Shown: piece by piece, positions 4,742 through 32,000 of the stretch
Layout of the letters: every line of letters begins with the position of its first letter
How positions within the stretch are numbered: the first letter of the stretch is position 1
Source of the DNA: PVC group bacterium
GTDB taxonomy: Bacteria > GCA-001730085 > JADFSZ01
Assembly (NCBI GenBank): GCA_022560555.1
Contig: JADFSZ010000002.1
Coordinates: 3,843-35,842, forward strand
Direction of reading: 5' to 3'
DNA: 32,000 bases
Program-made: the position numbers and the translations under genes
The notes under the pieces: model-generated
Seen by the model: only the letters and a program-made list of their open reading frames with translations
The model's database searches: none
What the model was told of the DNA's origin: nothing

Positions 4742-4784
4742 AAGAGGAAGGCCGGTTTTTCTTACTACCAGGGTTATAAATAGC

Positions 4785-6457: not shown

Positions 6458-6489
6458 TGGTTCATCCTACGCGTTGTGCAGCTCTCGTA

Positions 6490-7351: not shown

Positions 7352-7370
7352 AAAGTCGCGTATTCGTTCT

Positions 7371-7976: not shown

Positions 7977-8019
7977 ACCCGGTTAAACTTGTGTAGTTTA
8001 ACAGATTCGTGCATACTAT

Positions 8020-10251: not shown

Positions 10252-10371
10252 AAGGGATATGGGTTTGGAAAATTAAAGATACAGGTCTAATCAAAGGCGT
10301 GAATCATCCGCCTTATAAAGGGATCAGGCTGTCAATTCATTTCCCCGGGATTCACACGGACATCCGGGGCG

Positions 10372-11670
10372 CTAACATTTAGCTTCACATTGTTTGGAGA
10401 TACGGATCGTTTGATCCCTTTTTGACCCCACAGAAACCAATTCGATGTTCGCTTCAAGAAGTTCTTCGATGCGATCAAGATAGTTTTTGAGCTCTTGAGG
10501 GAATTCCTCATATTGAGTCAACCCGGTCGTATCTGTCTTCCATCCCGGATGTTCTTCATAAATCGGTTTGCATCGTTTCAAGATGTCGATTGAGTTCGGA
10601 AAACGATCGAGGATTTTTCCGTCACATTCATACCGGGTGCATATTTTAATAGTTTCAAGCTCATCAAGGACATCCAGTTTTGTCACAGCCAGAGCATTGA
10701 TCCCGTTAATCATGACCGCGTACCGGGTCACAACCGCATCCAGCCAGCCGCACCGGCGAGGGCGGCCCGTTGTCGCTCCAAACTCTTCACCTTTTGCGCG
10801 GATTTTTTCTCCGAATTCCGGAGGGAACTCTGTAGGGAGAGGACCTTCTCCGACCCGGGTTGAATACGCTTTAACGACGCCCATGGCTTTTTCGATTTTC
10901 GTCGGTCCGACACCCGTTCCCGTACAGGCTCCGCCGCACGTTGAATTGGATGATGTCACATAGGGATACGTTCCATGATCGACGTCAAGCAGGGTCCCCT
11001 GAGCGCCTTCAAACAAAACGGACTTTCCTTGATCGATGGCTTCGTTCAATATCCATGATACGTCAGCAATATACTCTTTTAACTCCCCGGCAATCTGGAT
11101 ATATTCATCAAAAATATCTTTTGTCACAAAACTGCCCAAGCCGTATATTTTACTCATAATTTCATTTTTTTCTTTAAGATTATCCTCAAGCTTCTTGTAG
11201 AAAACATCCCGGTCCAATACATCCCCCACACGAATTCCGGTACGCGCGATTTTGTCCACATAGGCCGGCCCAATCCCGCGACCGGTCGTGCCGATCTTTT
11301 CAAGCCCTTTACGTTCTTCTTTAATCTTATCGAGTGCTTTATGATACGGAAAAATCAAATGGGCGTATTGACTGATAAAAAGCCGCCCCTTAACAGAGAT
11401 CCCTTGCGATTCTAGTCCCTTGATTTCGGAATAAAGATCCGCGAGATCGATAACAACGCCGTTGCCGATAACACAGATTTTGTCTTTGTGAAGAATCCCG
11501 GATGGAATGAGGTGAAGAATATATCTGTCGTCTCCGATCACGACCGTGTGTCCGGCATTGTTTCCCCCTTGATAACGAACAATATAGTCCGCCTCAACTG
11601 TGAGGTAATCTACAATTTTCCCTTTGCCTTCGTCACCCCACTGGGCACCCACAATCACGATATTGGACAT
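10372..11670 (-). CDS. purA: adenylosuccinate synthase
   Basis: 432 aa. It has the canonical N-terminus MSNIVIVGAQWGDEGKGKIVDYL, plus GGNNAGHTV, TTGRGIGPAY and GTTGRPRRCGWLD. Confidence 0.95.
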   Translation of the reverse strand: MSNIVIVGAQWGDEGKGKIVDYLTVEADYIVRYQGGNNAGHTVVIGDDRYILHLIPSGILHKDKICVIGNGVVIDLADLYSEIKGLESQGISVKGRLFISQYAHLIFPYHKALDKIKEERKGLEKIGTTGRGIGPAYVDKIARTGIRVGDVLDRDVFYKKLEDNLKEKNEIMSKIYGLGSFVTKDIFDEYIQIAGELKEYIADVSWILNEAIDQGKSVLFEGAQGTLLDVDHGTYPYVTSSNSTCGGACTGTGVGPTKIEKAMGVVKAYSTRVGEGPLPTEFPPEFGEKIRAKGEEFGATTGRPRRCGWLDAVVTRYAVMINGINALAVTKLDVLDELETIKICTRYECDGKILDRFPNSIDILKRCKPIYEEHPGWKTDTTGLTQYEEFPQELKNYLDRIEELLEANIELVSVGSKRDQTIRISKQCEAKC

Positions 11671-12436: not shown

Positions 12437-13699
12437 TCAGGGTCTAACAAATAAAGCGGCCCCCCGGGGCTCCATTTTGACAACTTCAAGATCTACGAGA
12501 CCGCGTAAGAATACCACATTCTCTTTGCCCTTGTCAAAATCGTAGTCATACCGTCCGTCCGGACCTAAACTTAAAAAATTAAGCGGAATATCCGTCGTCA
12601 AATTCACATTCTCACTTAAGACAACGTGGCCCGGAGGATACTCGACCATGTATTTCGTGATCACAGGCGCGTCATGGTCATATCCTAAGGTGACTTGAAT
12701 GCGCCACATACGCCCCGTCTCGGGTTTGGCCTCTAGAACAATCCGATCGCCGCTCTCAAAGGTTCGGATATTCGCTAGGCTAAAAACACGTATATGTTCT
12801 GAGTCCGGAATCCGGATCCGTGTTCCCTCGGCGATGAGCAAGCCCGACCCGGAACTCCGGGTATTTCGCATATGAACAAACGCTGTTCCTGTTTTTTGGG
12901 TTTGAATATCTTTTTCTTGAGCGTGTCCTATCGACGCGGTCACACTTACTTTGACGGCCGAAATATTGGGGATGTTTACTTTCAAAGGAGAGAGTTCCTG
13001 GTTCATGTTATTAAAATACTGAAAATGACATTGAGAAATTTTACCTCCCGAGGGCAGCCGCCCCGGAATCGATTGCGTCAGGCCCCGGTAGGTACGACTG
13101 AGACTATCATCTTTCCAGGAGAGTGTCATCGCGCAGTCCGGAAAATGTTCGGCATCCGGATGGAATATAAAACGAATGCGATCACCCGCGCGAACCGCCT
13201 GGGTGAGATAAACTTTATCATTCAGTTCCCGGGCGCGTTCTTTTTCCCCGGGCACAAATGTCACCGGTATTTGAGACCATTTCTCTTTTCCGGATTCCGA
13301 CACTTCTTCCAAGATTTCGGCAATCGGCGTAAAGCTTCCGGGTTTATACGGACGGTTGAGGATAAACGGTTTTTGTGCGGCCGTTCGAGACGATTGATGA
13401 ACGAATGAAGGATCATGGGTCTCGTCCGTCCATAAAGGAACAAACCGAATGAAAGTTTCCCCAAGATCCAAAATTTCCAGAGAATCTTTGACGCCAAGAT
13501 TGTCAAAACCTCCCTGAATGATTTCTTCGAGACAATCATCTATGGCTTTTTCGAGAAGGATCTCCTGTTGGCTATACGTGTAAGCGTCCAGGCTGGCTTG
13601 AAGCATATACAGCGTGACTCCCGTCAGCATGCCTGCGATCGCGATCGCGATCAAGAGCTCCAAGAGCGTTAGCCCTTTGTGGTTTAGCCGTTTGTCCAT
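12437..13699 (-). CDS. unusually large pseudopilin (prepilin-type N-terminal cleavage/methylation domain, about 420 aa)
   Basis: The ATG at 13699 is preceded by AAGAGGGG and follows the upstream stop at 13722; the track start at 13756 is TTG. The N-terminus MDKRLNHKG/LTLLELLIAIAIAGMLTGV is a class III signal with Glu at +5. The remaining roughly 390 aa have no family I recognise. Confidence 0.7.
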   Translation of the reverse strand: MDKRLNHKGLTLLELLIAIAIAGMLTGVTLYMLQASLDAYTYSQQEILLEKAIDDCLEEIIQGGFDNLGVKDSLEILDLGETFIRFVPLWTDETHDPSFVHQSSRTAAQKPFILNRPYKPGSFTPIAEILEEVSESGKEKWSQIPVTFVPGEKERARELNDKVYLTQAVRAGDRIRFIFHPDAEHFPDCAMTLSWKDDSLSRTYRGLTQSIPGRLPSGGKISQCHFQYFNNMNQELSPLKVNIPNISAVKVSVTASIGHAQEKDIQTQKTGTAFVHMRNTRSSGSGLLIAEGTRIRIPDSEHIRVFSLANIRTFESGDRIVLEAKPETGRMWRIQVTLGYDHDAPVITKYMVEYPPGHVVLSENVNLTTDIPLNFLSLGPDGRYDYDFDKGKENVVFLRGLVDLEVVKMEPRGAALFVRP

Positions 13700-13721
13700 G
13701 CCGGACACCCCTCTTATTTTT

Positions 13722-14210
13722 TTATTCCACGCTGTTAAACCAATCCAGGTCTTCAATGAGTGTCACGGCTTGGGCTTCCGGGAGCCCCTCAGGTTCCGAA
13801 AGAGTCGCCTCTGTTAGCTGGTAAGCCAAAATGCGAACTTCCAGAGGATCTGTTTGAAGATCCACCGTTCTCTTTATACGCCAGTACTTTTTGTTCAGTG
13901 TAACGGGAGCCTCATCCAGGGGCGGATCCCAAACATCGCCTAAAGCTTTTAGTTGGGCCTCCGTAAGCCCCATGTTTTTAACTTTTTCCATTCCTTCCTG
14001 GATCAGATATCTGGCGGTAGTCAAGTCCTGATCCATAGACACTTGTTCCAAAGAAGCTGTAAACATGCGCATGAGAGGAACAAACACAATGGCAATTACG
14101 GCAAGCGTGATGAGAAGCTCGATGAATGTAAAACCCTTTTTAGTTCGGAGGGCAAAACGCATTCTCTGTGATCTCTGTGTGCTCTGTGGTGAAGGTCTTA
14201 AAAAAGTCAT
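13722..14210 (-). CDS. pseudopilin (prepilin-type N-terminal cleavage/methylation domain)
   Basis: Motif KKG/FTFIELLITLAVIAIVFVPL. The ATG at 14210 overlaps the stop of the 1194-aa gene (ATGA). An alternative ATG at 14162 gives the short leader MRFALRTKKG. Confidence 0.7.
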   Translation of the reverse strand: MTFLRPSPQSTQRSQRMRFALRTKKGFTFIELLITLAVIAIVFVPLMRMFTASLEQVSMDQDLTTARYLIQEGMEKVKNMGLTEAQLKALGDVWDPPLDEAPVTLNKKYWRIKRTVDLQTDPLEVRILAYQLTEATLSEPEGLPEAQAVTLIEDLDWFNSVE

Positions 14211-17200
14211 GGAATTTCTCGATAAAGCTGCACGCCCACACCGGTCCTGGAAACGGTACCAAACTGCACGGTCCCATCTTGCGGAATCAGGATGGGATCC
14301 GACGTTGGTGTTACTGTAACGGTTTCTGCCTCATCATCCGTTACGGCGATCGTGGCTTTGCCCTGCGACACACTCACAGCAATGGTTTCGGCTGGTGATG
14401 TCGCGGAGGCGTTATCCGCCAGAAACTCTTCTAAAACAATGATGAAAATGGTCGCACTATCTTGTAAAAGAATCTCCCCGTTGGCATCGAGCAGCTGCAC
14501 GTTTACGCTTACCGTCCCGACCGGACCGGAGGTTGAAATAACCTGAATCGTCCCCTGTTTAATAGTGATAGCTTCAGAGTCTCCCGTTACCGTTGTGTGT
14601 ACGGTATCTGTGACGGTTAATGTTGTTTCAATCTCATCCGATCCGGCACTGGTTTCAAACAAATGTATACCTGCATCCACAGCAGTGAATGTATAATCAT
14701 CGGGAAGTGCCAGATCATCTCCCGCGAAGGTGACGGTTCCCTGATAATTGGATATGCTTGCGTCATTAAAATCCCGCGCGGTGACGATGGCTGAGAATTC
14801 CTCATCAATGTAAAAGTATGTTCGGAACGCCGGAATGGCCGATAGTGTTAAGAGTAAATCCTTGGGAATAAATGTGATCTCAACGGAAATTCCCGTTTGA
14901 GTTGTGAGGGTCGTATCCGTGGACGTGATCGTGATCGTTCCCCATTTGTCATAGATCATGTCCGTGATGACGGCAACACCGTTCGTCCAATTGGTAGATG
15001 AAAGAGTTGTCGTGTTTAAGGCTCCGGATTGATCGGCCGCGGGCGAAATCGTATTCACAGTTAAAGTGGTCGAGCCCAAATAATTCGGGCATGGGACTCC
15101 GGCGGCATTGCGAGCCGTTACGGTTAATGTAAAAGGTTTATTGACGGTGTGAAGCGCGGACGCGGTATCATCCAGTTCTGTTCCCACAACTGTAAAGTCA
15201 AACGGGACAAACAAAATGTTTCCGGTAATACCCGTGACCGTGGGATCGCTTGCATCCGTTGCTGTGATCGTAATTGTCCCACAATCCGAAAAAGTTTGAT
15301 TCGTCAAGGTGGCGACTCCTTCAACAAACGCGGAGGTGGATGTCACGCCTAAAGTGGCCAAGCCGGAATCCGGTGACACGAAACTAACCGTCATGTTTGC
15401 TGTTCCGGAATAACCCGTGAAGACGCCCCCTGTATTGTCTAAAGCCGTAATGGTTATGGTAAAATTAGTTCCGGCAATTTGCGGGCTAGAAACTGTGACG
15501 GAAAATGAGTTCACATTCGTACTGATGGTGAATTGTTGTGTGGCATCGGTCCATCCTTGGGACGGATTTTCCGAAGCGGTAAGGGTCGGGGTACCGACTT
15601 GCGAATCCCGGTAATAAAATTCGGCCGTGCTTTGCCCTGAGGAGATGGTGATTTGTGTGATGGTTGTTGCAAATGAACTGTTATCGGAAAATGTTCCTTG
15701 CGCGGATGAACTTGTGAGATCCAGCACAGTGTCTGACGAGACATTAACGGCATCACCGGAAGAGTTTTGGGTCTGTACAGTGATCACGCTTGAGATCTGA
15801 TTTTGAACTAATGTTTGGGGTGATGTCGTAAAAACAATCTGACTGATAGCATCAATAATTATATCAGCTGACACAGCCGTATCTTGATCAATCGTGATGC
15901 TTCCGCCCAACGTTTGCGTTTTAATCGAATAAGTTCCCGTTGAACCCGCCGAGCTTGGATTCGTGATACTGTTAATCTGGAAACTGACAGCTGTTGAACT
16001 CGAAACTTTTGTTCCGCCGCTTCTGGTGATCGTGATCACATCATTGGTGCCGTCCCCGTTGGATGTTGCGACGGAGAAACTTCCGTCAATGCCTGATGCC
16101 GAGGACACGGTATCCGAACCCGTTCCGTTAAACCCGGACGGAAAATCAATAACAATCAAACCATTGATCGGAATCACATTGGCTGTGGTAAAACTGATCG
16201 TCACGAGACCCTCCGCACCTGCCGAGAGAGAGTCTGGCTCGACATCCGTGCTTGTGAGTGTTCCCGGGACAAAAAACCAGTTCGTGTTTCCACCGCTGTC
16301 GGTTGAATTTGTGGCAAAAATATCTTGGCCCGTCGCATTGGAGTCTTTCACATCGACAAAATCGGCTTGATACGTGGCCCCGGTGTTGACGTTAAGTGTC
16401 CAAGCAGAGTTGTTTTGATCACTTTTTAGTGTGACAAGGCTCCCTGATGATCCCGTAAAATTGATGGCGGCACCGCTCGCAACGGAAACGGTATCGGCAT
16501 TATCGATTGTATACGTAAAACCTCCGTCAAAATCCAAGGTCCCGGCCGTCACGGTAATATTTTGAATCCCGGTACAGGTTCCTGTCAGAGTCACGGTCCC
16601 TGAAGATTTATTGATCGTGAGATTATCCTGAAAATCTCCGCCGGAATTTCCCGTAATTGTTTGATCTCCCGTGGCTGTTAAAGACAAACTTGTGGTACCC
16701 CCGTCGGCAGAAGCGCCGACGGTCACGTTGCCCTCAGGCGCCAGTGTCCCTCCGTTGATCGTGTAGTTTGTCAGACTTAATGTTCCGGTGATTGTCAGCG
16801 TCGTTCCGGCGCCAATCGTTACGGTCTTGTTACCCCCCCCGGAATCAAAGGTAAGATGATTAAAGCTCATGGATCCTGTTATATTCAAATTATTGTCCGC
16901 AAAGACCACCGTGGAGCTCCCGGCATCCACGGTTCCCTGGGTATACGTCCAATCACTGCCTGTTCGAATGATGCTGGCCAATGTCAGTGTTCCCGATGAT
17001 TTATTGATGTTGACAGCGGGACATTCTCCTGTTGAGGCCGATCCGCCGCCGGTAAACGTTTGAGCTGATGTACCTGAAATATCAAGTGTCGCTGATCCTC
17101 CGTCAAACGTTGTGGCCAGATTGATAGCTCCTTTGCTTCCCAGCGTTCCCGTGTTCACGGTTCCGTCTGTCAGATTCAGTGTTCCGTTGACTGTGAGTGT

Positions 17201-17791
17201 TTGCCCGGAAGAAATCGTAAATGTTTTGTTTGCGTTAAACGTGACATTATTGAATACGGCACTGCCCGGACTGATCGTGAGGTTATTCGTATCAAATTCC
17301 ACGGTCCCCGAATTATGTGTAAACGTTCCGGAAGAAAACGTAAAAGCTTTAGCACAAAACATTGTCCCGGACGTGGATGTAAAACTAGCACCGTTCACAG
17401 TGAATGTTCCGTTCACATCAATCGTGGAGGACCCTCCGGTAAATGTTCCGCCCGTAAAAGCGGCATTCCCTGTTCCGACGGTAAAGCTGTTCGCCCCTTG
17501 AGAAAGCGTTGTTGTGTTCCCGCTTTGCATGTCGAGGCCTCTCACATTGACCGTTTGATCAACAGTGCAGATTCCTCCGCCGGAGCTGCCGTCAAAAAAC
17601 GCCTTATCCGACGACCCGGGTACGGATTGATTTCCCGCCCCTCCGGACATGTTTGACCAATGCGCGGTGTCCGACCAATTCCCGGTCCCTCCGATCCAAT
17701 AGCGATTCGCGGCCCATGACTCGCGCGGACAAAACGCAATAACCAAAAAGACAAAAAGAAAAACCTTTTTTGAAAAAAACCCTTTTATCAT
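14207..17791 (-). CDS. 1194-aa secreted beta-helix-like / Ig-like repeat protein (candidate exoprotein or adhesin)
   Basis: Sec signal peptide MIKGFFSKKVFLFVFLVIAFCPRESWA/A. Residues about 30-508 are G/T/S/N-rich short repeats (GGTFTGGSSTIDVNGTFTVNGASFTSTSGT..). Residues about 648-1180 form five units of roughly 105 aa that share xFTxTVTAxD..G....NYxGTxxxTV. I see no recognisable C-terminal anchor or sorting signal. Confidence 0.7.
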   Translation of the reverse strand: MIKGFFSKKVFLFVFLVIAFCPRESWAANRYWIGGTGNWSDTAHWSNMSGGAGNQSVPGSSDKAFFDGSSGGGICTVDQTVNVRGLDMQSGNTTTLSQGANSFTVGTGNAAFTGGTFTGGSSTIDVNGTFTVNGASFTSTSGTMFCAKAFTFSSGTFTHNSGTVEFDTNNLTISPGSAVFNNVTFNANKTFTISSGQTLTVNGTLNLTDGTVNTGTLGSKGAINLATTFDGGSATLDISGTSAQTFTGGGSASTGECPAVNINKSSGTLTLASIIRTGSDWTYTQGTVDAGSSTVVFADNNLNITGSMSFNHLTFDSGGGNKTVTIGAGTTLTITGTLSLTNYTINGGTLAPEGNVTVGASADGGTTSLSLTATGDQTITGNSGGDFQDNLTINKSSGTVTLTGTCTGIQNITVTAGTLDFDGGFTYTIDNADTVSVASGAAINFTGSSGSLVTLKSDQNNSAWTLNVNTGATYQADFVDVKDSNATGQDIFATNSTDSGGNTNWFFVPGTLTSTDVEPDSLSAGAEGLVTISFTTANVIPINGLIVIDFPSGFNGTGSDTVSSASGIDGSFSVATSNGDGTNDVITITRSGGTKVSSSTAVSFQINSITNPSSAGSTGTYSIKTQTLGGSITIDQDTAVSADIIIDAISQIVFTTSPQTLVQNQISSVITVQTQNSSGDAVNVSSDTVLDLTSSSAQGTFSDNSSFATTITQITISSGQSTAEFYYRDSQVGTPTLTASENPSQGWTDATQQFTISTNVNSFSVTVSSPQIAGTNFTITITALDNTGGVFTGYSGTANMTVSFVSPDSGLATLGVTSTSAFVEGVATLTNQTFSDCGTITITATDASDPTVTGITGNILFVPFDFTVVGTELDDTASALHTVNKPFTLTVTARNAAGVPCPNYLGSTTLTVNTISPAADQSGALNTTTLSSTNWTNGVAVITDMIYDKWGTITITSTDTTLTTQTGISVEITFIPKDLLLTLSAIPAFRTYFYIDEEFSAIVTARDFNDASISNYQGTVTFAGDDLALPDDYTFTAVDAGIHLFETSAGSDEIETTLTVTDTVHTTVTGDSEAITIKQGTIQVISTSGPVGTVSVNVQLLDANGEILLQDSATIFIIVLEEFLADNASATSPAETIAVSVSQGKATIAVTDDEAETVTVTPTSDPILIPQDGTVQFGTVSRTGVGVQLYREIP

Positions 17792-17837: not shown

Positions 17838-19544
17838 TCAGACATCTCGGGTAACTCTCAAGACTTCACTTAAACTTGTCAGACCCTGCAGAACTTTTTC
17901 AACACCGTTTTGCTGCAAGGTCTTCATTCCCGTTGATTGGGCCGCGGCTTTCACCTCATGAGCGGGAGCCTTTTGGTCAATGAGTTCTTTAATCCGGTTA
18001 TCCGTAAGAAATATTTCGAAAAGGCTTGTGCGTCCTTTGTATCCTAGTTTGAGGCAGGCTTTACACCCTTCGGCCCGATAAATTTTCTTCCCCTCAAGCT
18101 CTGTCAACGTACCGGCCATTCCGGCCCAGTCGCTCGGATGCGGTATAAATTCTTTTTTGCATTTCGGACACAATTTTCTCACAAGTCGTTGGGCCGCGAC
18201 GCCCAAAAGAGACGCTGAAATCAGGTACGGCTCAATTCCGATATCCACCAACCTGGCGACAGCCGCCGCGGCATCATTGGTGTGCAGCGTGGAAAAAACA
18301 AGGTGACCTGTCAACGCGGCATGAATGGCGATGTCGGCGGTTTCTCTATCCCGGATCTCTCCGATCATGATGATATCCGGATCGAGCCGAAGCATGGAAC
18401 GCAGCCCCGTCGCGAATGTGAACCCGGCCTTGGCATTGACTTGCGCTTGATTGACCCGCGGGATCGTGTATTCAATCGGATCCTCCAGGGTCACAATATT
18501 TTTTTTCAGATCATTGATGGTGTTTAAAATCGCGTACAGCGTTGTGCTTTTTCCCGTTCCTGTCGGGCCTGTGACTAAGATCATTCCGTGCGGCCGGTTA
18601 ATAAGATCCTTGATTTTATTAAGGTCATCGCCTTGAAATCCCAATTGATCAAGGTTCATGATGCCTTGAGATTTATCCAAAATGCGTATGGACACGTGCT
18701 CGCCGTACAGCGTCGGGAAGGTTGCGATCCTCAGATCGACTTCTTTTCCAGAGATGTTTGTCTGAACACGCCCGTCCTCCGGCAAACGGCTTTGCGCGAT
18801 ATCCATCTCGGCTAAAATCTTAATGCGGGACACGATCGCCCTGTACAATTTTGCCGGGGGTGGTTTCACGTCATGAAGAATTCCGTCAATCCTCATCCGG
18901 CAATACGTCGTTCTTTCATGCGGCTCGAGATGAATGTCACTTGCGCCCGATTTCACGGCATCCTCAATGATCTGATCAACGATTTTTTTCACCACCGCCT
19001 GTTCCACATCATCAACAAACGAAGGCGTTTTTTCTAAAACTGCTTTGTCGCCTTGGGATGGTCCCTGAGGGCTTGTTGGAGTCTGTAGAGGGGTGATCTT
19101 TTGTGTCGGCACACCACCATAAAATTTATCAATGGCCGCTCTAATGCCTGACGGGGTCGCGATCATCGATTTAATTCTTAGATTTCCTGTCAGCTGGGTT
19201 ATTTCATCGATCAGGCTAATGTTAAGAGGATTGGCCATGGCCACGTTTAACGTTTGTCCGAGCTGAAAAACGGGAATCACCTCCAGGCGACGCGCCTCCT
19301 CCTCAGGAATTAAGGTTAGGGCCTCCTCCTCCACCTGGTAAGTTGATAAATCTATAAAAGGGAATCCGAGCTGATCAGAGAGAATTTTGGCAATATCTTC
19401 TTCAGTCGCGAATTGATTGCGCACAATGATCTCTCCGATCTTTTTATTGGTCCGCTTTTGCTCTCGGAGCACCTCATCCAGCTGAACCTGGGTGATGATG
19501 CCTTGTTCAACCAAAATTTCTCCGATCAATCCTCGTTTGGCCAT
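17838..19544 (-). CDS. GspE/PilB/MshE-family type IV filament assembly ATPase with MshEN-type N-terminal domain
   Basis: 568 aa. Walker A is LVTGPTGTGKSTTL, with Asp/His boxes and a tetracysteine cluster (CPKC..CKAC). The N-terminus LIGEILVEQGIITQVQLDEVLREQ-KRTNK-KIGEIIVRNQFATEEDIAKILSDQ is two 24-residue MshEN-type motifs separated by 5 residues. Confidence 0.9.
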   Translation of the reverse strand: MAKRGLIGEILVEQGIITQVQLDEVLREQKRTNKKIGEIIVRNQFATEEDIAKILSDQLGFPFIDLSTYQVEEEALTLIPEEEARRLEVIPVFQLGQTLNVAMANPLNISLIDEITQLTGNLRIKSMIATPSGIRAAIDKFYGGVPTQKITPLQTPTSPQGPSQGDKAVLEKTPSFVDDVEQAVVKKIVDQIIEDAVKSGASDIHLEPHERTTYCRMRIDGILHDVKPPPAKLYRAIVSRIKILAEMDIAQSRLPEDGRVQTNISGKEVDLRIATFPTLYGEHVSIRILDKSQGIMNLDQLGFQGDDLNKIKDLINRPHGMILVTGPTGTGKSTTLYAILNTINDLKKNIVTLEDPIEYTIPRVNQAQVNAKAGFTFATGLRSMLRLDPDIIMIGEIRDRETADIAIHAALTGHLVFSTLHTNDAAAAVARLVDIGIEPYLISASLLGVAAQRLVRKLCPKCKKEFIPHPSDWAGMAGTLTELEGKKIYRAEGCKACLKLGYKGRTSLFEIFLTDNRIKELIDQKAPAHEVKAAAQSTGMKTLQQNGVEKVLQGLTSLSEVLRVTRDV

Positions 19545-19587: not shown

Positions 19588-19986
19588 CTAAATCGCGGTG
19601 TATTGGATTTGCACCGTTCTTTGGACGCGGTTAAATTCTCCCGTTGCCGTGATAGTCGCGTTTTGAAAATCGTGTTCAGCCCAAAAATAACCTTGATCCA
19701 ATTCGGTTTTCACAATATTGCCGGTTCCGTTATGATCAAGATCCGTGTCGTATCTCAATTCCCAAATGGATTTCGCAATCCCCGCTTCCGCGAGATACAA
19801 AGCCCGAAGCCGATCAAATTGCATCTGCGAATAAAGAATGCGGGAATACAGTATCGCCACAAGAGCCGTTCCTAAAAGCGCGAGAAACGTTAATATAATA
19901 ATCGTCGTAAGCAAAATCACCCCCCGGTTTCGGAGCGTATGTCCGTTGCGACAAAGCCGGGTTTTACCATTCCAATGGAATCTCAC
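19588..19986 (-). CDS. PilX_N / GspK-like minor pseudopilin-like protein
   Basis: The hydrophobic N-terminus RNRGVILLTTIIILTFLALLGTALVAI resembles the PilX N-terminal domain. The track start at 20112 is a TTG inside the upstream pilin gene. The only plausible start is the GTG at 19986, so the start is uncertain. Confidence 0.45.
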   Translation of the reverse strand: MRFHWNGKTRLCRNGHTLRNRGVILLTTIIILTFLALLGTALVAILYSRILYSQMQFDRLRALYLAEAGIAKSIWELRYDTDLDHNGTGNIVKTELDQGYFWAEHDFQNATITATGEFNRVQRTVQIQYTAI

Positions 19987-20446
19987 CTTTAATATCTCCC
20001 CATGTGTCGTCCAGAGGCTGATCGATATTAATAAACACGTCGGCCTTATCCGTATAATACACCCATCCGCCGTTGCGCTTTCCCGGACGATCTTTTGATT
20101 TAAGATCGACAAACAGGGAACTGCCGGATTTGGCGCTCATCATTTCCAGAGGAAGTTTTTTCAGATACGGTTTTTCGATCCCCGCGTCCGTGTAGGTTTT
20201 CTCTAAAAGATCATTCAAGCTCTTCGGATAATATCCTTCTTTGGCGCGAAAGAGCATGATGCGGGTACGCAGTGTGTCCAGATTGGCTTTGGACGCGGCT
20301 ACGCGGGCCTCTGTGTCAAACCCGATAAAATTCGGAATCATGGTCGCGGCTAAAATGGCAATGATCGAAATCACGATCAAAAGTTCAATCAATGTAAATC
20401 CCCGACGGCCAGCGGGGGAATATTTAAGAAATGTTCGTCTCATCAT
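19964..20446 (-). CDS. GspG-like major pseudopilin (prepilin-type N-terminal domain)
   Basis: Motif RRG/FTLIELLIVISIIAILAATMIPNF, then ASKANLDTLRTRIMLFRAKEGYYPKSLNDL, typical of T2SS GspG-type pilins. An AAGGAG SD lies upstream. Confidence 0.8.
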   Translation of the reverse strand: MMRRTFLKYSPAGRRGFTLIELLIVISIIAILAATMIPNFIGFDTEARVAASKANLDTLRTRIMLFRAKEGYYPKSLNDLLEKTYTDAGIEKPYLKKLPLEMMSAKSGSSLFVDLKSKDRPGKRNGGWVYYTDKADVFINIDQPLDDTWGDIKGEIPLEW

Positions 20447-20496: not shown

Positions 20497-21720
20497 TTAA
20501 TGAAATAATTTAATCAAATTAAAAATCGGCATCAAAATAGATAGAGCAATAAAAGCCACGACCCCACCCATCACGAGGAGCAAGGCCGGTTCTAAAATGG
20601 TGGCCATATTTTTCAGCGCGTACTCAACTTCCCGATCATAGAAGGTGGCTGCTTCCTGGAGCATTTGATCCAATGATCCGCTTTTCTCGCCCATAACAAC
20701 CATCTGTGTAACAGCCTGAGGAAAAATGCCGCTGGTGATCAAAGGTTCGCTCAATGGGGCGCCTTCTGAAATCGCGAAACGGATCCCTTCCATTTTTTTC
20801 GCGATAAACTGATTCCCGGCGACTTTCTCAACCGTCATGAGGGCTTCCGTGATAGGAACACCCGTATGGAGCAAAACTCCCAGGGTTCGTGTCACACGCG
20901 CAACGATCCCTTTCAATTGTAACGATCCAAAAAGAGGTATTTTCAAAATCCAAGTATCCACACGCAAGCGCCCATGGGCGGTTTTGATATACCGTTTGAT
21001 CCATAAGACCGCCAAGATTACGGCCGCGATCGCGCCAAACCAAAATCGTCGAAAAAAGAGGCTTGCCCCAAGCAAAAATTGCGTGGACAAAGGCAGATCT
21101 GTATCATACGCTTCAAAAATGACCGTGAATTTTGGAACCGTATTGACCAAAAGGAACCCGACGATACCGATTGCGGCCAGAGCTAAAAACACCGGATAGG
21201 TCATAGCCGTCCGGATTCGGATCTTAAACTCATATTCACGCGCGTACATGTCCGCCGTTCTTTCCAAAACATCATCCAGGATTCCGCCGGTTTCTCCAAC
21301 ACGGACCATACTCACGAACAGATCCGTAAAAATATCCGGATGTTTCCTCAAGGACTCCGAAAAGGAGTCTCCTCCTTCTAAATCTCTCGCGACTTTGCCG
21401 AGAGTTTTCTTCAATTTTCGATTCTTGGTTTGCTCTTCTAAGCTTTTAACGGCACTCACTATGGGAATTCCGGCTTTTATGAGGGCTGCGAGCTGCCGGG
21501 TTAAAAAAACAATCTCGGTTTTATGAGACTGGGTCAGGATCTGATAGACATCGTTCCACCACTCTTTCAGACCTCTTTGTTTTGTTTGGAGGGAGATGAC
21601 GCTGTACCCCAAAGAACGCAGCCTCACGGCCGCGGCCATATCATCCTGGGCTTCAATTGTTGATGAGAACATTTCTCCGTCCTTATCACGGACTTTGTAA
21701 AAAAAGAGAGGCATTGTCAA
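20497..21720 (-). CDS. GspF/PilC-family inner-membrane platform protein
   Basis: 407 aa. N-terminus FFYKVRDKDGEMFSSTIEAQDDMAAAVRLRSLGYSVISL, two T2SSF repeats and three TM segments. There is a 4-nt overlap with the secretin stop. Confidence 0.9.
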   Translation of the reverse strand: MTMPLFFYKVRDKDGEMFSSTIEAQDDMAAAVRLRSLGYSVISLQTKQRGLKEWWNDVYQILTQSHKTEIVFLTRQLAALIKAGIPIVSAVKSLEEQTKNRKLKKTLGKVARDLEGGDSFSESLRKHPDIFTDLFVSMVRVGETGGILDDVLERTADMYAREYEFKIRIRTAMTYPVFLALAAIGIVGFLLVNTVPKFTVIFEAYDTDLPLSTQFLLGASLFFRRFWFGAIAAVILAVLWIKRYIKTAHGRLRVDTWILKIPLFGSLQLKGIVARVTRTLGVLLHTGVPITEALMTVEKVAGNQFIAKKMEGIRFAISEGAPLSEPLITSGIFPQAVTQMVVMGEKSGSLDQMLQEAATFYDREVEYALKNMATILEPALLLVMGGVVAFIALSILMPIFNLIKLFH

Positions 21721-23372
21721 GCCCCTCTTCGTCTTTTCATGAATTTACGGTTTTTGGAAAGGATTTTTTTATCGATCTGTTTTAACAATTTTTTGGCTTT
21801 CCTGATCAGAGAAGACTCCGGATATTCATGAATGAGTTCGACCAACATGGCTTGCGCGGCCACCAGATCATCAAAATATTTATAGGCTAAGTTCCCGCCG
21901 CGAAAGAGGGCTTCCGGTGTTTTCTCGCTTTGGGGATATATGGACACGATCTTTTGATATCGCCTGAGGGCAAGAACCATCCGGTCCCGTCGATCTTTAT
22001 TACGCGAAATGATCCCGCGCCCTTTTTCCAAATCGGCAGCCTCTTGCCACAATTGATGCACCAGAACCTGTTCACCGGTTTCTTTAATTTGAACAAAAAC
22101 CTCCCGGGGAATTTCCGGGCGCTGGTTTCCCGGTGAATCCCTATACTTGATTATCGTTGGGGTGATAAACACGACCAATTCCGTTGACGTCGTGTCACTA
22201 CTTCTGTGCCGAAAGAGTCGTCCCAGGATCGGAATGCTTCCCAGGATCGGAATTTTTCCCTTAATGCTATCCTCCTGGCGCTTAATGAGACCTCCGATGA
22301 CAATCGTCTCTCCGTCTTTCACAACAATCGTGGCATCCGCTTCCCGGGTGGCCACACGCGGACCGGCCTCCAACTCTGCGGTTAAGGATGAAACCTCGGG
22401 ATGAACGTACATTGTGATCCAGCCGTCGGGAGAGACCCAGGGCGTCACTCTCAGTGTGGTTCCGATATCGACAAATTTTGTTGTTTCCGTTGTTCCGGTT
22501 GTCGTTTGAGTTTTCTCTTTATAGGGAAACCGTTCTCCGATAATGATCCGGGCTTCTTTTCCGCTGAGAGTCATAATGGAGGGTGATGCCAAAAGATGGG
22601 CTTTATTATCTCTGATCAAGGCATCAATCGTGGCCGTGGCGGTGATTCCTTTTGTTGCAAAGGACGTTAATTTGAGTTGACCGCCGGAAAGGGTTGAGGA
22701 AGGGCCTGCCATATCTCCGCTTCCTCCCAAATCAAAAAACCGGCTTTGAACGGTCCAGCTAAAGCCTGCGTTTCGACTATCTTGCTCGGTGATGTCAATC
22801 AATCTGGCTTCGATCAGGACTTGAATCGGCGGTGTATCCAATTCCTCCAGGGTTTTTCGTAAATTCTCGATGTACGCCGGATAATCCGTGACCACAAGCG
22901 TGTTGTTCGCTTCATTCACCCGAATCTTTCCAAGAGAAGACAGTCCATCCGTTAAGAGACGGCTCGCGTCATGCGCGTTTAAATAGTTCAGGACTACGGT
23001 TTCTGTTGTCACACGCACACCGTCGACTCCAGGGCTCGGCGTGATGTAAATCAGATTTCCTTTTTTGATATAGGTGTATCCATTAATGCTTAAGATCACC
23101 TGAAGAGCTTCTTCGACCGTCACATTTGTCAACGGGAAAGACACGGTCCCCTCAATATTTTTGGGGGCCACCAAATTTAAGTTGTACGAATAGGCAAGCG
23201 ATCTTAAAACGCTGGTAAGAGACGCGTCCTGAAAATCGAGCGTGATCAATTCTTGATCCATTTCATGGCTGATGGTGTCCTCCGTTGCTAGCACCACCCC
23301 TGCGGGGGGCATCATGGAGAGGAGCAAGACCAAACACATCATCTTGCCTAAGGGTATTATGCGTGCCGACAT
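21717..23372 (-). CDS. secretin (GspD/PilQ/MshL family) with a 141-aa C-terminal TPR-like extension
   Basis: The ATG at 23372 is preceded by AAGGAG; the track start at 23417 is TTG. The protein has a signal peptide, an N0-like domain (ITLDFQDASLTSVLRSLA..EEALQVILSINGYTY) and a secretin core ending GKIPILGSIPILGRLFRHRSSDTTSTELVVFITPTII. An extra tail follows, with RRYQKIVSIYPQSEKTPEALFRGGNLAY..LVELIHEYPESSLIRKAKKLL. Confidence 0.85.
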   Translation of the reverse strand: MSARIIPLGKMMCLVLLLSMMPPAGVVLATEDTISHEMDQELITLDFQDASLTSVLRSLAYSYNLNLVAPKNIEGTVSFPLTNVTVEEALQVILSINGYTYIKKGNLIYITPSPGVDGVRVTTETVVLNYLNAHDASRLLTDGLSSLGKIRVNEANNTLVVTDYPAYIENLRKTLEELDTPPIQVLIEARLIDITEQDSRNAGFSWTVQSRFFDLGGSGDMAGPSSTLSGGQLKLTSFATKGITATATIDALIRDNKAHLLASPSIMTLSGKEARIIIGERFPYKEKTQTTTGTTETTKFVDIGTTLRVTPWVSPDGWITMYVHPEVSSLTAELEAGPRVATREADATIVVKDGETIVIGGLIKRQEDSIKGKIPILGSIPILGRLFRHRSSDTTSTELVVFITPTIIKYRDSPGNQRPEIPREVFVQIKETGEQVLVHQLWQEAADLEKGRGIISRNKDRRDRMVLALRRYQKIVSIYPQSEKTPEALFRGGNLAYKYFDDLVAAQAMLVELIHEYPESSLIRKAKKLLKQIDKKILSKNRKFMKRRRGA

Positions 23373-23391
23373 ATGTGTCTCCTTTTTCGTA

Positions 23392-24279
23392 TTATTCCGG
23401 ACGATACGATAAAACAATATCTGAGATACCGTCCGTTAAAACGATTTGGTTCCGAGTAATTTTTTTAATCGTTTTTTTATCGATGGCGTCTCCCACACGG
23501 TACACCCGGCCATTAATAATCACTGTGGGATTTTTTCCCGTTGGGATCACCCCGCTGATATGATATGTTTCTTCCTGCCCGGAAACCGCTTTTGGAGACG
23601 GCCCCTGGATGTCGCTCACGAGCGGATTTCGACTCATTTGAATTTCAGGAATATCTTGAACTTCTGCGGGGCCTTGATCTTTTATGGCTTCTCCTAACAA
23701 CGTAGACAGTGTCAGTTTGATTTCGGCTCTACCTTGAAAGCCGTTCTCCATTTTTTCCATAACCATTTCATTCGGTTTCAAGAATTGTGATAAAGCTTCC
23801 AGGCGATAAAGATAGTTCACAAGGCCCGGATAATCCGCATGAAATATCATCTCCACATCCAGACGGGAATATTCTTCCAACGGATCACCCAGTTTGGGTT
23901 TAATGGAAATCAAATCAATCGGGTATCCCTCGGCTTGGCGGGCTATTTGACCCAAAATTTGCGGAATGCTGCCCTGCCGGGGCAGCTCGGCCTCTACATC
24001 GGCTAACTCGGACATAAGCCATTTGTACCGTTCTTGATCCGCTTGAAGGGCCTCTTCTTCTTTTTGAACATTCGGGGTCTCGCTTTGAATCCTGATCCTT
24101 TGATTGTCCAATTGAAGTGCGTGGGCTTTCAAGTCCCTGAGGACGGCTGCTCGCGGTTTATAAGAAAACCGGACATAGGCGCTAAAGATAATCACAAGCG
24201 CTAAAAGGCCCAGAAGCATTTTTCTCTGCAGGGTCTGCGCGTGAAATCCTTCGATAAGCTTATGTGTTTTTTTTGTCAC
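23392..24279 (-). CDS. PilO-like protein fused to a PilP/GspC-HR-like C-terminal domain
   Basis: 295 aa. A TM helix and coiled coil are followed by a PilO-like core (LPRQGSIPQILGQIARQAEGYPIDLISIKP..ADYPGLVNYLYRLEAL). After a linker comes YHISGVIPTGKNPTVIINGRVYRVGDAIDKKTIKKITRNQIVLTDG. Confidence 0.6.
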   Translation of the reverse strand: MTKKTHKLIEGFHAQTLQRKMLLGLLALVIIFSAYVRFSYKPRAAVLRDLKAHALQLDNQRIRIQSETPNVQKEEEALQADQERYKWLMSELADVEAELPRQGSIPQILGQIARQAEGYPIDLISIKPKLGDPLEEYSRLDVEMIFHADYPGLVNYLYRLEALSQFLKPNEMVMEKMENGFQGRAEIKLTLSTLLGEAIKDQGPAEVQDIPEIQMSRNPLVSDIQGPSPKAVSGQEETYHISGVIPTGKNPTVIINGRVYRVGDAIDKKTIKKITRNQIVLTDGISDIVLSYRPE

Positions 24280-24866
24280 AATGCCCCGGTTGACATCAAT
24301 ATATGCGTTGTTACCTCAAAATTAATAAGAGGTCTTCCGTCCAAATCGGTTTTTTCGGTATAGTTAAAACCCGTGCGTTCAAAAGTAACTGAAGTATCCA
24401 GGCGCTCCATAAACTGACTCACTTTGATATTGTCCAGCGTTGTGCCGATAATGGTGATCTGGTTTTGATCCAGCATCATTTTATCGATCCATAAATCCGA
24501 CGGAACATATTCAGAGAGGGTTTTTAAAACTTCAGAAAAATCGATCTGACGGCTTCGGGACATTCGAATGACTCTCAATTTTCCTTCAAGACGCTTACTA
24601 TTCTCCCGGATCCGTTTTCTTTGCTCCTCGGCTTTAGTTACGGCGCTTTGTTGTTCGATCAGATTTGCTTCATCATTTTGTATGGCTTTTTGCTGCCGGG
24701 GGATGCGGATACGCAGGCTCATTATCCACAGGGACTGCCCCAGAAAGACAAGCCCCATGATGACAAAAACACTGATCACACCAAACCATATGCGATTTTT
24801 CGGCAAAGTCCGCCATTCGGCTTGTTTTTTTGAAACGCTCCTCGTTATGAGATTGATCCGTCTCAT
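24276..24866 (-). CDS. PilN-like assembly protein
   Basis: 196 aa. The N-terminal MRRINLI motif is followed by a TM helix, a coiled coil and a ferredoxin-like C-terminal part. It has 4-nt overlaps with both neighbouring genes. Confidence 0.7.
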   Translation of the reverse strand: MRRINLITRSVSKKQAEWRTLPKNRIWFGVISVFVIMGLVFLGQSLWIMSLRIRIPRQQKAIQNDEANLIEQQSAVTKAEEQRKRIRENSKRLEGKLRVIRMSRSRQIDFSEVLKTLSEYVPSDLWIDKMMLDQNQITIIGTTLDNIKVSQFMERLDTSVTFERTGFNYTEKTDLDGRPLINFEVTTHILMSTGAL

Positions 24867-26095
24867 TCTTCTAAGCCTCTTAGGGCCAAACCCAAGGCCA
24901 CATTGAAGGCCCCTCCTGTCGGAATCCCCATTTGCCCGGCCATCAAATCTCCCAAAGGATCGGCAAGTGTAACAGGAACGTTAAGACGCGAAGTTAAAAA
25001 GGGGACAAAACCCTTGAGAGACGAGGCCCCTCCACAGACAATAACGCGGTTATATTTCGTGATCTGCGACCGTGTGATCTGAAACGAAAAATGCTTAAAC
25101 GTATGTTCGATGTCTTGAACAAGATGTTCCAAATGAGAAAGAATCGCGTTCCGCACCTGAGTCGCATGATTTGTCATTTCCGGAGCCTGATCATCCAAAG
25201 TTTGATCCCCGGTACCGATGGAAATGCCATGCTCACGTTTTAAGAGTTCGGCCTCTTCCCAGCTGGTTTGACAGTATTGACTGATGGCTTTGGTTAAAAA
25301 GTTTCCCGTGATGTTTAAGCTCCTCACAGAAATCAGTTCTTTGTTGCTAATAATTCCAACCGTTGTTTGTCCCGCGCCAAAATCAAGGTAAAGCACAACT
25401 TCCTGCTCGTGAAGATAGCCATTACCATAGCTTAAAGCTGCCACATCCGAAAGAGCCTCGACATCAGTCGCGAGGGTTTCCAGGCCGACGGATTTCAAAA
25501 GGCCGAGTTGTTCGTGAACAACTTTTCTTTGGGTCACGATCACCAGGAATCCGACGTCATTGTCAAACAAATCCCGGCTTTGCTTCTCAAGAACAAGATA
25601 GTCATAGGTGATTTCATCGGGATTCCGGCGAAACTGTTGTTGGATTTCCCAGTACATGGCTTTGTCCACTTCCTGGGGTGGAATTCTGGGAAGTTTGATA
25701 AGATCCAGTTTGCAGGCTGAGATGGGCACATGTGTGAAACAAGCGTCTTTCAAATTTATGCTTTTGCTGATCTTTCTGAGGATTTCCGATATATAGATCG
25801 CTTTTTGGTCGGGATGCTCTCGCACGGACGAGGGAAAATCTTCAGTTAGGGCATGGATCACACGTATTCGTCCCTCGCTTTCAAGGCCTAGCTGAACAAT
25901 TTTGAGGGAATGTGTTCCTATATCGAGTCCGAAGGGATATCGTTTGCTGATCAGGATCTGAGGGCTCGGGATCTTTGGCTCTTCAACATTTTGACGCCCT
26001 TTTTGATCAAAGAGGCGGGACGCCTTTTTTTTGGACGGACGTGAAAAGACTGTTTGAACAATATCCGGATTATGAGATGGTTTCGATTCCGGCAC
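24863..26095 (-). CDS. PilM-like actin-fold assembly protein with an N-terminal extension
   Basis: The signature FGLDIGTHSLKIVQL and an ASKHA fold run throughout. The track start at 26167 is TTG. I prefer the GTG at 26095, preceded by GGAG at 7-nt spacing. Either start overlaps the 3-prime end of the ParA-like gene. Confidence 0.75.
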   Translation of the reverse strand: MPESKPSHNPDIVQTVFSRPSKKKASRLFDQKGRQNVEEPKIPSPQILISKRYPFGLDIGTHSLKIVQLGLESEGRIRVIHALTEDFPSSVREHPDQKAIYISEILRKISKSINLKDACFTHVPISACKLDLIKLPRIPPQEVDKAMYWEIQQQFRRNPDEITYDYLVLEKQSRDLFDNDVGFLVIVTQRKVVHEQLGLLKSVGLETLATDVEALSDVAALSYGNGYLHEQEVVLYLDFGAGQTTVGIISNKELISVRSLNITGNFLTKAISQYCQTSWEEAELLKREHGISIGTGDQTLDDQAPEMTNHATQVRNAILSHLEHLVQDIEHTFKHFSFQITRSQITKYNRVIVCGGASSLKGFVPFLTSRLNVPVTLADPLGDLMAGQMGIPTGGAFNVALGLALRGLEE

Positions 26096-27035
26096 CAAGG
26101 CTCTCCGATACGGGTAAGTGATTAACGTTTTGAGAACACTGAGGGTCTTTTGCAAGAGTGCGTTCAATGACCTCCTGGGTCAGGGCCCAATAATCTTTGG
26201 CCCCTTGGGATGTCCGGGCATATAGATGAATGGGCTTTTTATAAATCGGGGCTTCACAGAGTTTGACATTGTAATGAATAGGGGTCCGGAAAACCAAGTC
26301 CTTGAAGTAGTTTTGAATTTGATCTAACACGCGGTGGCTGACCTTGGTTCTTTTATCAAAGAGTGTCGCGAGGATCCCGAGAATCTTCACGTCAAAATTG
26401 AGCCGTTCTTTCACAATATCGATGGTGGAAAACAGCTCTTTCATCCCCTCTAAAGAATAATAATGCGTTTGGACGGGGATAATCACGTAATCGGCCGCGA
26501 CGATGGCATTCAGGGTCACGAGATTCAGACTCGGGGAGCAATCGATTAGTGTATATTGGTATTTTTTACGAAGGCGCAATTTGTGAATCGCGATCCTGAG
26601 GATGGATTCTCTTCCCAGGACTGTTGCCAGCTCTAATTGAGCATCGGCGAGAGAGACGTTGGCCGAAGCGATATCCAGATTTTTGACGGATGTTTTTTGA
26701 ATCACATCTTCAAGTCCCGCATTGTTGATCAGCACATCATACGTTGATTTTTCTGTCTGTTCGATGTCGACCCCGAGGCCAAGCGACGCGTGGGCCTGAG
26801 CATCAAGATCAATCAGGAGAACCCGGTATCCTTTCTCGGCCAGACAAGACGAGAGATTGATAGCCGTCGTTGTTTTGCTGCATCCTCCTTTTTGATTACA
26901 GATGGCGATGCAAATTTGTTGAGTTGTCGATATAGGGACATCATTTTTGGAATTCAATGAGGTGGGCTGGTTTTGGACACGTTCTTCTTTCAGGGCTTTA
27001 TCTCGCGAAAAACTATTTTTGAATTGATCAAACAT
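26070..27035 (-). CDS. ParA/MinD-family P-loop ATPase, first gene of the pilus/secretion operon
   Basis: 321 aa. The ATG at 27035 is preceded by AGAGGGGG. It has the deviant Walker A CNQKGGCSKTTTAINLS, plus LLIDLDAQA and YTLIDCSPSL. About 40 aa of unique N-terminal extension and about 25 aa of C-terminal tail are present. Confidence 0.85.
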   Translation of the reverse strand: MFDQFKNSFSRDKALKEERVQNQPTSLNSKNDVPISTTQQICIAICNQKGGCSKTTTAINLSSCLAEKGYRVLLIDLDAQAHASLGLGVDIEQTEKSTYDVLINNAGLEDVIQKTSVKNLDIASANVSLADAQLELATVLGRESILRIAIHKLRLRKKYQYTLIDCSPSLNLVTLNAIVAADYVIIPVQTHYYSLEGMKELFSTIDIVKERLNFDVKILGILATLFDKRTKVSHRVLDQIQNYFKDLVFRTPIHYNVKLCEAPIYKKPIHLYARTSQGAKDYWALTQEVIERTLAKDPQCSQNVNHLPVSESLGAGIETIS

Positions 27036-27806: not shown

Positions 27807-27833
27807 ATTTCCCTCCTCCCCTGCAGACCCCAC

Positions 27834-28310: not shown

Positions 28311-28338
28311 ATGAACTCCTTCCTATCCGGGAATGATC

Positions 28339-31877: not shown

Positions 31878-32000
31878 TTTTTCCGTGCTCCTTATATGAT
31901 TGCATGTTCCCAATGGCTCATGTCCTTTCATGCCGCGGGTTTCCCCTTGAACATCCAAGAGACAAACTGTCTCACTTTAATATAAATATATATAACAGAA

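Follow-up and report, generated by a model that had tools for sequence, protein, structure and literature searches.

A divergent MshQ-like protein, probably a pilus-tip adhesin, encoded within a type IV pilus operon of a PVC group bacterium

What is a large secreted protein doing in the middle of an operon that otherwise encodes a filament machine? The question is raised by a 32,000-nt stretch of contig JADFSZ010000002.1 (assembly GCA_022560555.1, from a PVC group bacterium; hereafter, the window), in which the gene for a 1194-aa protein lies between an ATPase gene and two pilin genes. A preliminary description of this stretch portrayed the product as a beta-helix followed by a separate module and five immunoglobulin (Ig)-like repeats, and took it for either cargo of the machine or an adhesin associated with its filament. 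The open reading frame (ORF), which starts at an ATG, is real (Table 1), and the anatomy ascribed to its product is essentially correct; what was missed is the family, which is that of MshQ, encoded with mannose-sensitive hemagglutinin (MSHA) pili. Profile comparisons show the protein to be a distant member of the MshQ (DUF6701) superfamily, and we consider it likely to be a pilus-associated, probably tip-mounted, MshQ/PilY1-like adhesin that docks to minor pilins by a C-terminal strand. A partial orthologue of 97% identity (P0171) comes from a metagenome-assembled genome (MAG) labeled "PVC group bacterium."

The evidence for this kinship lies in the C-terminal ~550 aa, a conserved module with 40 to 57% identity among homologues. 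An exhaustive profile search was flooded by the Ig repeats of giant proteins, and the matches that we counted are those that form a single stretch and run to the C terminus; in 56 of 56 such representatives, ranging from 331 to 3073 aa in length, no more than 30 residues separate the end of the module from the C terminus. When the full 1194-aa protein was searched against Pfam and NCBIfam, no family matched at an E value of ≤1, save a chance hit to DUF5085 (Pfam), and a profile search against PDB sequences returned nothing useful. Its C-terminal 554 aa did not match DUF6701 at an E value of ≤0.01, in a Pfam copy that lacks the newer PF28243 and PF28247. Because these scans were empty, the family assignment was routed through relatives. 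One family member, P0147, matches the Pfam DUF6701 model (E = 2.3e-24, 86.9 bits against a cut-off of 27), as do 4 of 36 and 12 of 38 members in two samples of the family, and precomputed annotations on the closest homologues read DUF6701_3rd and DUF6701. A search from P0147 reached P0189 (direct match, E = 6.9e-8), which bears the annotation MSHA biogenesis protein MshQ, carries DUF6701 together with its 2nd, 3rd, and 4th sub-domains, and is encoded in a canonical msh locus (L005: MshL-type secretin, AAA_22, TPR, MshE, T2SSF, and pilins). Alignment of the family profile (A2) with P0189 in hhalign gave a probability of 97.8% (E = 1.1e-12) over 464 columns, reaching the last residues. The range of the MshQ family is thereby widened beyond the Gammaproteobacteria and canonical MSHA machines.

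The most conserved short stretch of the family is its terminal motif, FG(T/S)xSGxG(V/I)G(I/V)xLWRE(I/V), in which F and G are invariant across 36 aligned members and W, R, and E nearly so. In the window protein the motif reads FGTVSRTGVGVQLYREIP, which aligns with the C terminus of the annotated MshQ, ...FGIYRGRDRVISWEELP, the pattern FG...W-E being common to both. A 2026 study proposed that the last ~10 residues of PilC/PilY1 are a beta-strand given to the PilK/PilX homologue of the minor-pilin initiation complex, and its AlphaFold models predict that MshQ docks likewise, with MshP as the PilK homologue (PMC13533445). In an AlphaFold2 (AF2) monomer model of the 1194-aa protein, built on an alignment of 52 sequences (mean predicted local distance difference test [pLDDT] score, 86.8), residues 1181 to 1194 are unstructured (pLDDT < 50), as one would expect if the strand must pair with another protein to fold. 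The strand-addition proposal can be tested comparatively on the family alignment: across at least 56 representatives, the motif is conserved and the region N-terminal to the stalk changes.

The surroundings of the gene point in the same direction. All genes of the cluster lie on the minus strand and run, in order of transcription, from two histidine kinases and two response regulators through a ParA-like ATPase, PilM, PilN, PilO, a secretin, PilC/GspF, the major pilin, a ~124-aa PilX/GspK-type protein, and the extension ATPase to the 1194-aa gene, after which come a 162-aa GspI-like pilin, a 439-aa pilin, and a response regulator. A scan of species-representative genomes for the C-terminal module recovered 16 loci, of which 15 strong ones (E ≤ 4e-78) were kept for the neighborhood count and one weak match from Myxococcota (E = 4e-4) was excluded. 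Most of the scanned loci are labeled Omnitrophota, one is labeled Auribacterota, and several are labeled Planctomycetia, Peribacteria, or Woesearchaeota. Pilins and/or an MshE-type ATPase adjoin the module in 13 of 19 loci; of the remaining six, one is on a short contig, two have nothing else detectable nearby, and three (L018 to L020) are taken up below. Three loci (L002 to L004) repeat the order seen in the window, namely, PilMNO, secretin, PilC, pilin, small PilX-like protein, MshE-type ATPase, MshQ-like gene, and two pilins, the latter of 145 aa and then 410 to 430 aa.

Each of the three core minor-pilin types (I-, J-, and K-like) has a candidate in the operon. A counterpart of the 162-aa pilin adjoins the MshQ-like gene in L001 to L004 and L009, and a counterpart of the 439-aa pilin lies downstream in L002 to L004, L006, L009, L013, and L014. 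The 162-aa pilin matches NCBIfam gspI at 2.6e-5, under the family cut-off. The ~124-aa protein matches no Pfam or NCBIfam family; its N-terminal pattern makes it a candidate PilX/GspK-type minor pilin, and it has counterparts of 58 to 60% identity at the same position in L002 to L004. Translational coupling between the MshQ-like gene and the 162-aa pilin gene had been suggested from an ATGA stop/start overlap. The overlap is present, but its use is doubtful: a second ATG 48 nt downstream yields MRFALRTKKG/FTFIELL, with a leader of normal short length (the slash marks the cleavage site here and in Table 1), such that the start within the overlap may not be the one used.

How the protein probably leaves the cytoplasm is suggested by its N terminus, where MIKGFFSKK, VFLFVFLVIAF, and CPRESWA, followed by A, succeed one another as the n, h, and c regions of a Sec signal peptide would; S and A occupy positions -3 and -1 relative to the putative cleavage site. 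This is the sole strongly hydrophobic segment of the protein, and residues 6 to 19 are helical in the AF2 model; cleavage is predicted to follow SWA, as proposed previously. The sequence contains no LPXTG, prepilin motif, lipobox, or C-terminal hydrophobic segment, and no Pfam or NCBIfam model for an autotransporter barrel, a two-partner secretion (TPS) domain, a type IX secretion system (T9SS) C-terminal domain (CTD; PF18962), or an SLH domain matched it. These negatives agree with the earlier statement that sorting signals and a C-terminal beta-barrel are missing, and the check for a sorting or anchoring domain of another pathway (type V secretion system [T5SS], T9SS, or S-layer), a hit in which would have spoken against the link to the filament machine, found none; we rejected the protein as a T9SS, T5SS, or sortase substrate on the absence of any sorting domain.

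A Sec-type N terminus without a membrane or wall anchor, on a protein whose gene sits inside the operon, would also suit a free cargo, for instance a beta-helix polysaccharide-degrading enzyme or toxin, that the filament machine would drive through the secretin and release in the manner of a type II secretion system. The major pilin does not separate the two, scoring about equally for PilA and GspG in NCBIfam (PilA_Myxo, 3.6e-13; GspG, 5.4e-12), and the weak structural matches of the N-terminal part include PL6 alginate lyases and tailspikes. Yet these lyase matches are not significant (E > 1; template modeling [TM] score, <0.2), Pfam and NCBIfam detect no catalytic family, and, unlike what is seen in an enzyme, it is the MshQ-like C terminus with its terminal motif that is conserved while the "business end" varies. 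The machine itself has PilM/N/O and an MshEN-type ATPase, and no GspC/L/M was matched in it by Pfam; judged by its gene content, it is closer in appearance to a type IV pilus than to a classical type II secretion system. We rejected the protein as an enzyme on the same two grounds (no catalytic family, no significant lyase match), and free cargo is, overall, very unlikely. Of the two roles first put forward, the filament-associated adhesin thus draws support from MshQ homology, gene order, and the C-terminal motif, whereas nothing specific speaks for cargo or for the analogy with pulA.

The regions that would be displayed by such an adhesin are largely modeled as beta. In the AF2 model, residues 30 to 510 and 650 to 1180 exceed a pLDDT of 90 and are all beta, an outcome that agrees with the predicted beta-helix and Ig-like folds in yielding an all-beta solenoid followed by five beta-sandwich blocks. 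The N-terminal head (residues 28 to 508), 54% of which is T, G, S, or N, reaches a pLDDT of 96.7 and a predicted TM score of 0.91 when modeled alone and forms an array of short strands. Foldseek found no significant match for it in the PDB (best E value, 0.44; TM scores, ≤0.32), and nearly all of the weak matches listed are beta-helix or beta-roll proteins, among them HMW1, Ag43, IgA1 protease, Hbp, PL6 lyases, the HK620 tailspike, tapirins, and EtpA. The models thus support the beta-helix as a fold class without membership of a named family: the Pfam Beta_helix model does not match the 1194-aa protein, and the profile check for pectate-lyase-like beta-helix and other families came back empty in Pfam and NCBIfam.

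Homologues of the head number in the hundreds and bear unrelated C-terminal parts, including the T9SS CTD and DUF11. Those from Bacteroidota, which carry PF18962, share 35 to 44% identity with the window protein across ~35 to 40% of its length. The head is built from a super-repeat of ~110 aa, with the consensus ...NTGTIxAxGxI...GGxATxxIxGTGxQTxTG...LPxxxINKxSGTLTL...NWTYTxGT...STVxF..., which is common to T9SS-sorted Bacteroidota proteins and DUF11 proteins, has no model in the Pfam copy searched, and seems to pass among proteins that differ in their export route. Similarly itinerant is the ~135-aa module that follows the head (residues 509 to 646), which contains …SAGAEGLVTISFTTANVIPINGLIVIDFPSGF… and recurs, often in tandem, at 37 to 50% identity in otherwise unrelated proteins (P0148, P0151 to P0170, and others), many of them of surface type. 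This independent recurrence upholds its separation as a module of its own; AF2 models it poorly (pLDDT, 41 to 58) with the shallow alignment used.

The five units of ~105 aa that had been read as Ig-like appear in the model as five blocks of beta-sandwich size (residues 650 to 1180, pLDDT > 90), but their kinship in sequence is clear for the central three (Smith-Waterman z = 12.7, 5.6, and 4.6 against shuffles) and weak for the first and last (z = 4.5); a BLAST self-comparison of the protein found no internal repeats. Foldseek matches of the full model are generic, comprising tandem Ig arrays (titin), macroglobulin MG domains, and S-layer proteins. The last of these (SbsB, SbsC, EA1, and a Nitrosopumilus S-layer protein), and the existence of family copies away from pilus genes, would suit a coat protein of the cell surface, akin to an S-layer protein, that shares a transcript with the pilus genes but has no physical coupling to the filament. 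The S-layer matches, however, are to tandem Ig arrays in general (TM scores, 0.09 to 0.18), no SLH or other anchor domain was found by Pfam, and a coat protein would leave unexplained both the conserved placement between ATPase and minor pilins and the MshQ homology. We regard this possibility as exceedingly improbable.

Across the family, the stalk and terminal motif stay and the head is exchanged. The N-terminal parts that stand atop the module in homologues include LamG, DUF2341, TIG, G8, and beta-helix, and a sample of family representatives adds PA14, GLEYA, H-type lectin, fn3, Big_1, and a carbohydrate-binding module (CBM) to LamG and DUF2341. LamG is present in three relatives (P0136, P0131, and P0139), and Laminin_G_3 has no match in the window protein (Pfam). 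Because relatives swap the head for LamG, PA14, H-lectin, GLEYA, DUF2341, TIG, or much larger arrays, it is probably the head that determines the binding target of the pilus. This exchange also bears on whether the protein is an assembly factor only, which would prime or stabilize a periplasmic minor-pilin initiation complex without being displayed, its N-terminal part serving to span the envelope or gate the secretin. Deletion of mshQ in Vibrio cholerae reduces the surface pilus (PMC7096442), the label "MSHA biogenesis protein" fits such a role, and the C-terminal strand model is primarily one of assembly licensing (PMC13533445). Against it, PA14, GLEYA, H-lectin, LamG, and CBM heads, which are known to bind carbohydrates or mediate adhesion, have no obvious use in the periplasm, and the freedom with which heads change on a fixed anchor speaks for a part that faces outward and is specific to its ligand; a role confined to assembly is, in our judgment, unlikely.

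Taken as a tip-mounted, MshQ-like adhesin, the protein would work as follows. Sec would export it to the periplasm, where its extreme C terminus (FG..G.G....[WY]RE[IV]) would insert as a beta-strand into a minor-pilin priming complex built from the ~124-aa PilX/GspK-like protein, the 162-aa GspI-like pilin, and the 439-aa pilin. It would then pass the secretin, carried at the tip of the growing pilus, with the five Ig-like units as a stalk and the ~135-aa module and 480-aa beta-solenoid as a distal binding head, and it would also help to prime pilus assembly. In the literature, MshQ figures as the putative adhesin of MSHA pili, and V. cholerae without it shows less surface piliation (PMC7096442).

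The comparisons above show the MshQ homology, the domain architecture, the constancy of the terminal position and motif, and the preserved gene order; we infer Sec cleavage, docking by strand addition, tip location, adhesin function, and ligand binding, and several points weigh against this reading. The window protein is matched neither by DUF6701 (PF20419) nor by any other Pfam or NCBIfam family, and its link to MshQ runs via relatives and profiles; for MshQ itself, the literature predicts the tip location without demonstrating it. MSHA-specific MshM (AAA_22), MshN (TPR), and Secretin_N_2 have no Pfam match in the window machine, the secretin of which carries STN and Secretin_N domains. Many family members have a short acidic tail beyond the terminal motif, so that the strand is not always formed by the last residues, and, for the head, Foldseek gave nothing significant and we can name no ligand. 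Finally, the copies in L018 to L020 have no detectable pilus gene in the flanks fetched (up to 10 kb).

Table 1. Coordinates of the MshQ-like gene, its parts, and the neighboring pilus genes in the 32,000-nt window
Feature	Position in window	Strand	Basis
MshQ-like gene, 1194 aa	14207..17791	-	ORF list and translation; ATG start
Residues 1-27, Sec-type signal segment (MIKGFFSKKVFLFVFLVIAFCPRESWA/A)	17711..17791	-	Sequence pattern
Residues 28-508, beta-solenoid head, ending ...NTNWFF	16268..17710	-	AF2 model
Residues 509-646, unannotated mobile ~135-aa module	15854..16267	-	Recurrence in other proteins
Residues 647-1180, five Ig-sized beta-sandwich units, MshQ/DUF6701-like stalk	14252..15853	-	AF2, Foldseek, hhalign
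Residues 1177-1194, conserved C-terminal motif FGTVSRTGVGVQLYREIP, candidate docking strand	14210..14263	-	Family alignment
Minor pilin, 162 aa, GspI/PilV-like (G/FTFIELL)	13722..14210	-	Pfam N_methyl, 1.9e-7
Large minor pilin, 439 aa (G/LTLLELL)	12437..13756	-	Pfam N_methyl, 5.3e-6
Extension ATPase, MshEN-type N-terminal domain (PilB/GspE-type)	17838..19544	-	Pfam T2SSE, 2.9e-137; MshEN, 6.4e-22
PilX/GspK-type minor pilin candidate, ~124 aa (RG/VILLT, no Glu5)	19588..19962	-	N-terminal pattern
Major pilin (G/FTLIELL)	19964..20446	-	Pfam N_methyl and T2SSG
Platform protein (PilC/GspF), secretin, PilO, PilN, PilM	20497..26167	-	Pfam

The loci of the family differ in ways that the window does not display. 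In L018 (2575-4236 and 8956-11130), L019, and L020, copies of the MshQ-like module are paired; those in L018 sit amid unrelated genes (radical SAM, EamA transporter, and methyltransferase), with a large serine recombinase adjoining. In an Omnitrophota MAG (L015), the order is pilin, PilX-like protein, 140-aa pilin, 409-aa pilin, 171-aa ORF, 2217-aa ORF, 759-aa MshQ-like gene, and MshE-type ATPase, so that the giant ORF (2540-9193) helps to separate the minor pilins from the MshQ-like gene (9362-11641). Two loci (L001, 3761-4120, and L002, 13625-13984) carry, between the MshQ-like gene and the first pilin, a gene for a 119-aa four-helix-bundle protein (Pfam 23S_rRNA_IVP/bAvd-like) that has no counterpart in the window. 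Proteins of the bAvd type accompany diversity-generating retroelements, and it is conceivable that this gene is tied to diversification of the adhesin.

Other features of the window concern the machine and its control. The pilus ATPase passes the NCBIfam model for a cyclic di-GMP (c-di-GMP)-binding motif (NF053729; 63 bits against a cut-off of 38), and its domain content suggests that pilus extension is probably under c-di-GMP control; in L002, two PilZ-domain genes are inserted ahead of the ATPase. Past its secretin domain (residues ~476 to 535), the secretin (21717-23417, minus strand) has weak TPR_6/YfiO-like matches (E = 0.005 to 0.009), and the PilO protein (23392-24279, minus strand) ends in a CdsD_C/T2SSB-like domain (residues 238 to 284); both fusions are unusual for a type IVa pilus. 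The ParA/MinD-like ATPase gene (26070-27035, minus strand) lies directly ahead of pilM, as it does in L003 (64% identity), and the two response regulators and two histidine kinases upstream of it occupy 27435-31958 (minus strand). Some 4.5 kb downstream of the cluster is the gene for a ComEA-like protein (7371-7976, minus strand; SLBB and HHH_3), which hints at DNA uptake as one possible function of a pilus in this organism. Two ORFs (8438-9562 and 9598-10251, both on the minus strand), separated by 35 nt and out of frame with each other, together make up a carbamoyltransferase gene, the first holding the start of Carbam_trans_N and the second the remainder of Carbam_trans_N plus Carbam_trans_C; on this layout, the split is a frameshift that marks either a pseudogene or an assembly error. 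Promoter and terminator scans gave results at chance level. No tandem DNA repeats were found, and there is therefore no sign of slipped-strand phase variation.

The significance of the protein lies in who carries it. Omnitrophota are ultra-small bacteria that are thought to be host-dependent, and their type IVa pilus clusters, which are near-universal, are presumed to let the cells attach to hosts; in the survey of their genomes, the passages on pili and adhesins neither name the binding part of these pili nor mention a protein of this kind (PMC10066038). The 1194-aa protein is a candidate for that part, being a divergent protein of MshQ type with a conserved anchor and interchangeable heads, and one that the standard domain databases do not recognize in this genome. 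More tentatively, and with somewhat less than even confidence, we suggest that Omnitrophota and neighboring phyla use the MshQ-type stalk with its FG...WRE strand as a universal pilus-tip plug, on which swappable heads (beta-solenoid, LamG, PA14, H-lectin, and giant arrays of >2000 aa) set the range of hosts or surfaces. Were this so, the window protein would be one allele of a phylum-wide system of swappable pilus-tip adhesins that determines host range.

Elongated beta-solenoids like the head of the window protein are found in the beta-helix adhesins of type V and TPS systems (Ag43, Hap, HMW1, and EtpA) and in T9SS-sorted proteins of Bacteroidota, and the beta-helix proteins of Bacteroidota share real sequence homology with this head. 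The window protein differs from all of these in lacking a barrel, a TPS domain, and a T9SS CTD, and its export is coupled to a pilus locus. The tapirins of Caldicellulosiruptor, which Blumer-Schuette et al. reportedly described in 2015 as beta-helix adhesins encoded beside a type IV pilus locus, likewise combine a beta-helix binding domain with genetic linkage to such a locus; tapirin C-terminal domains figure among the weak Foldseek matches of the head, although not significantly (E = 3.4 to 7.4; TM scores, 0.12 to 0.17).

PilC/PilY1 of type IVa pili offers a parallel of another kind. It, too, is a large non-pilin protein with a signal peptide that is encoded beside minor pilins of the PilV/W/X type, and the C-terminal strand proposed to be given to a PilK/PilX homologue, as well as the role as tip adhesin and primer, is the same as that envisaged here (PMC13533445). 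There is no kinship in sequence or fold: the window protein has neither the propeller nor the vWA domain (Pfam) and has an Ig-array stalk instead. A PilY1 homologue was rejected on the lack of a propeller, and the resemblance would be a functional one.

The closest comparison is with MshQ of the MSHA pili of Vibrio, Shewanella, and Aeromonas. The two proteins are only ~23% identical, and the window protein goes unrecognized by the DUF6701 model. Heads in the MshQ family, where present, are LamG, in contrast to the 480-aa beta-solenoid and unannotated module found here; the window machine has PilM/N/O and is without MshM/MshN; and MshQ is a protein of Gammaproteobacteria, whereas the window derives from Omnitrophota/PVC. 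Relative to described MshQ proteins, what is new is thus a member that domain models miss, a head of this composition, a non-canonical machine, and a host of Omnitrophota type; the protein is useful for annotation, for the host-attachment biology of ultra-small bacteria, and as a comparative argument in favor of strand addition, and it does not represent a new kind of system. Like the window protein, MshQ is a large Sec-type protein encoded beside minor pilins, in a machine with an MshEN-domain ATPase, and the two share a head-plus-stalk layout and, by profile, homology over their C-terminal ~470 residues.

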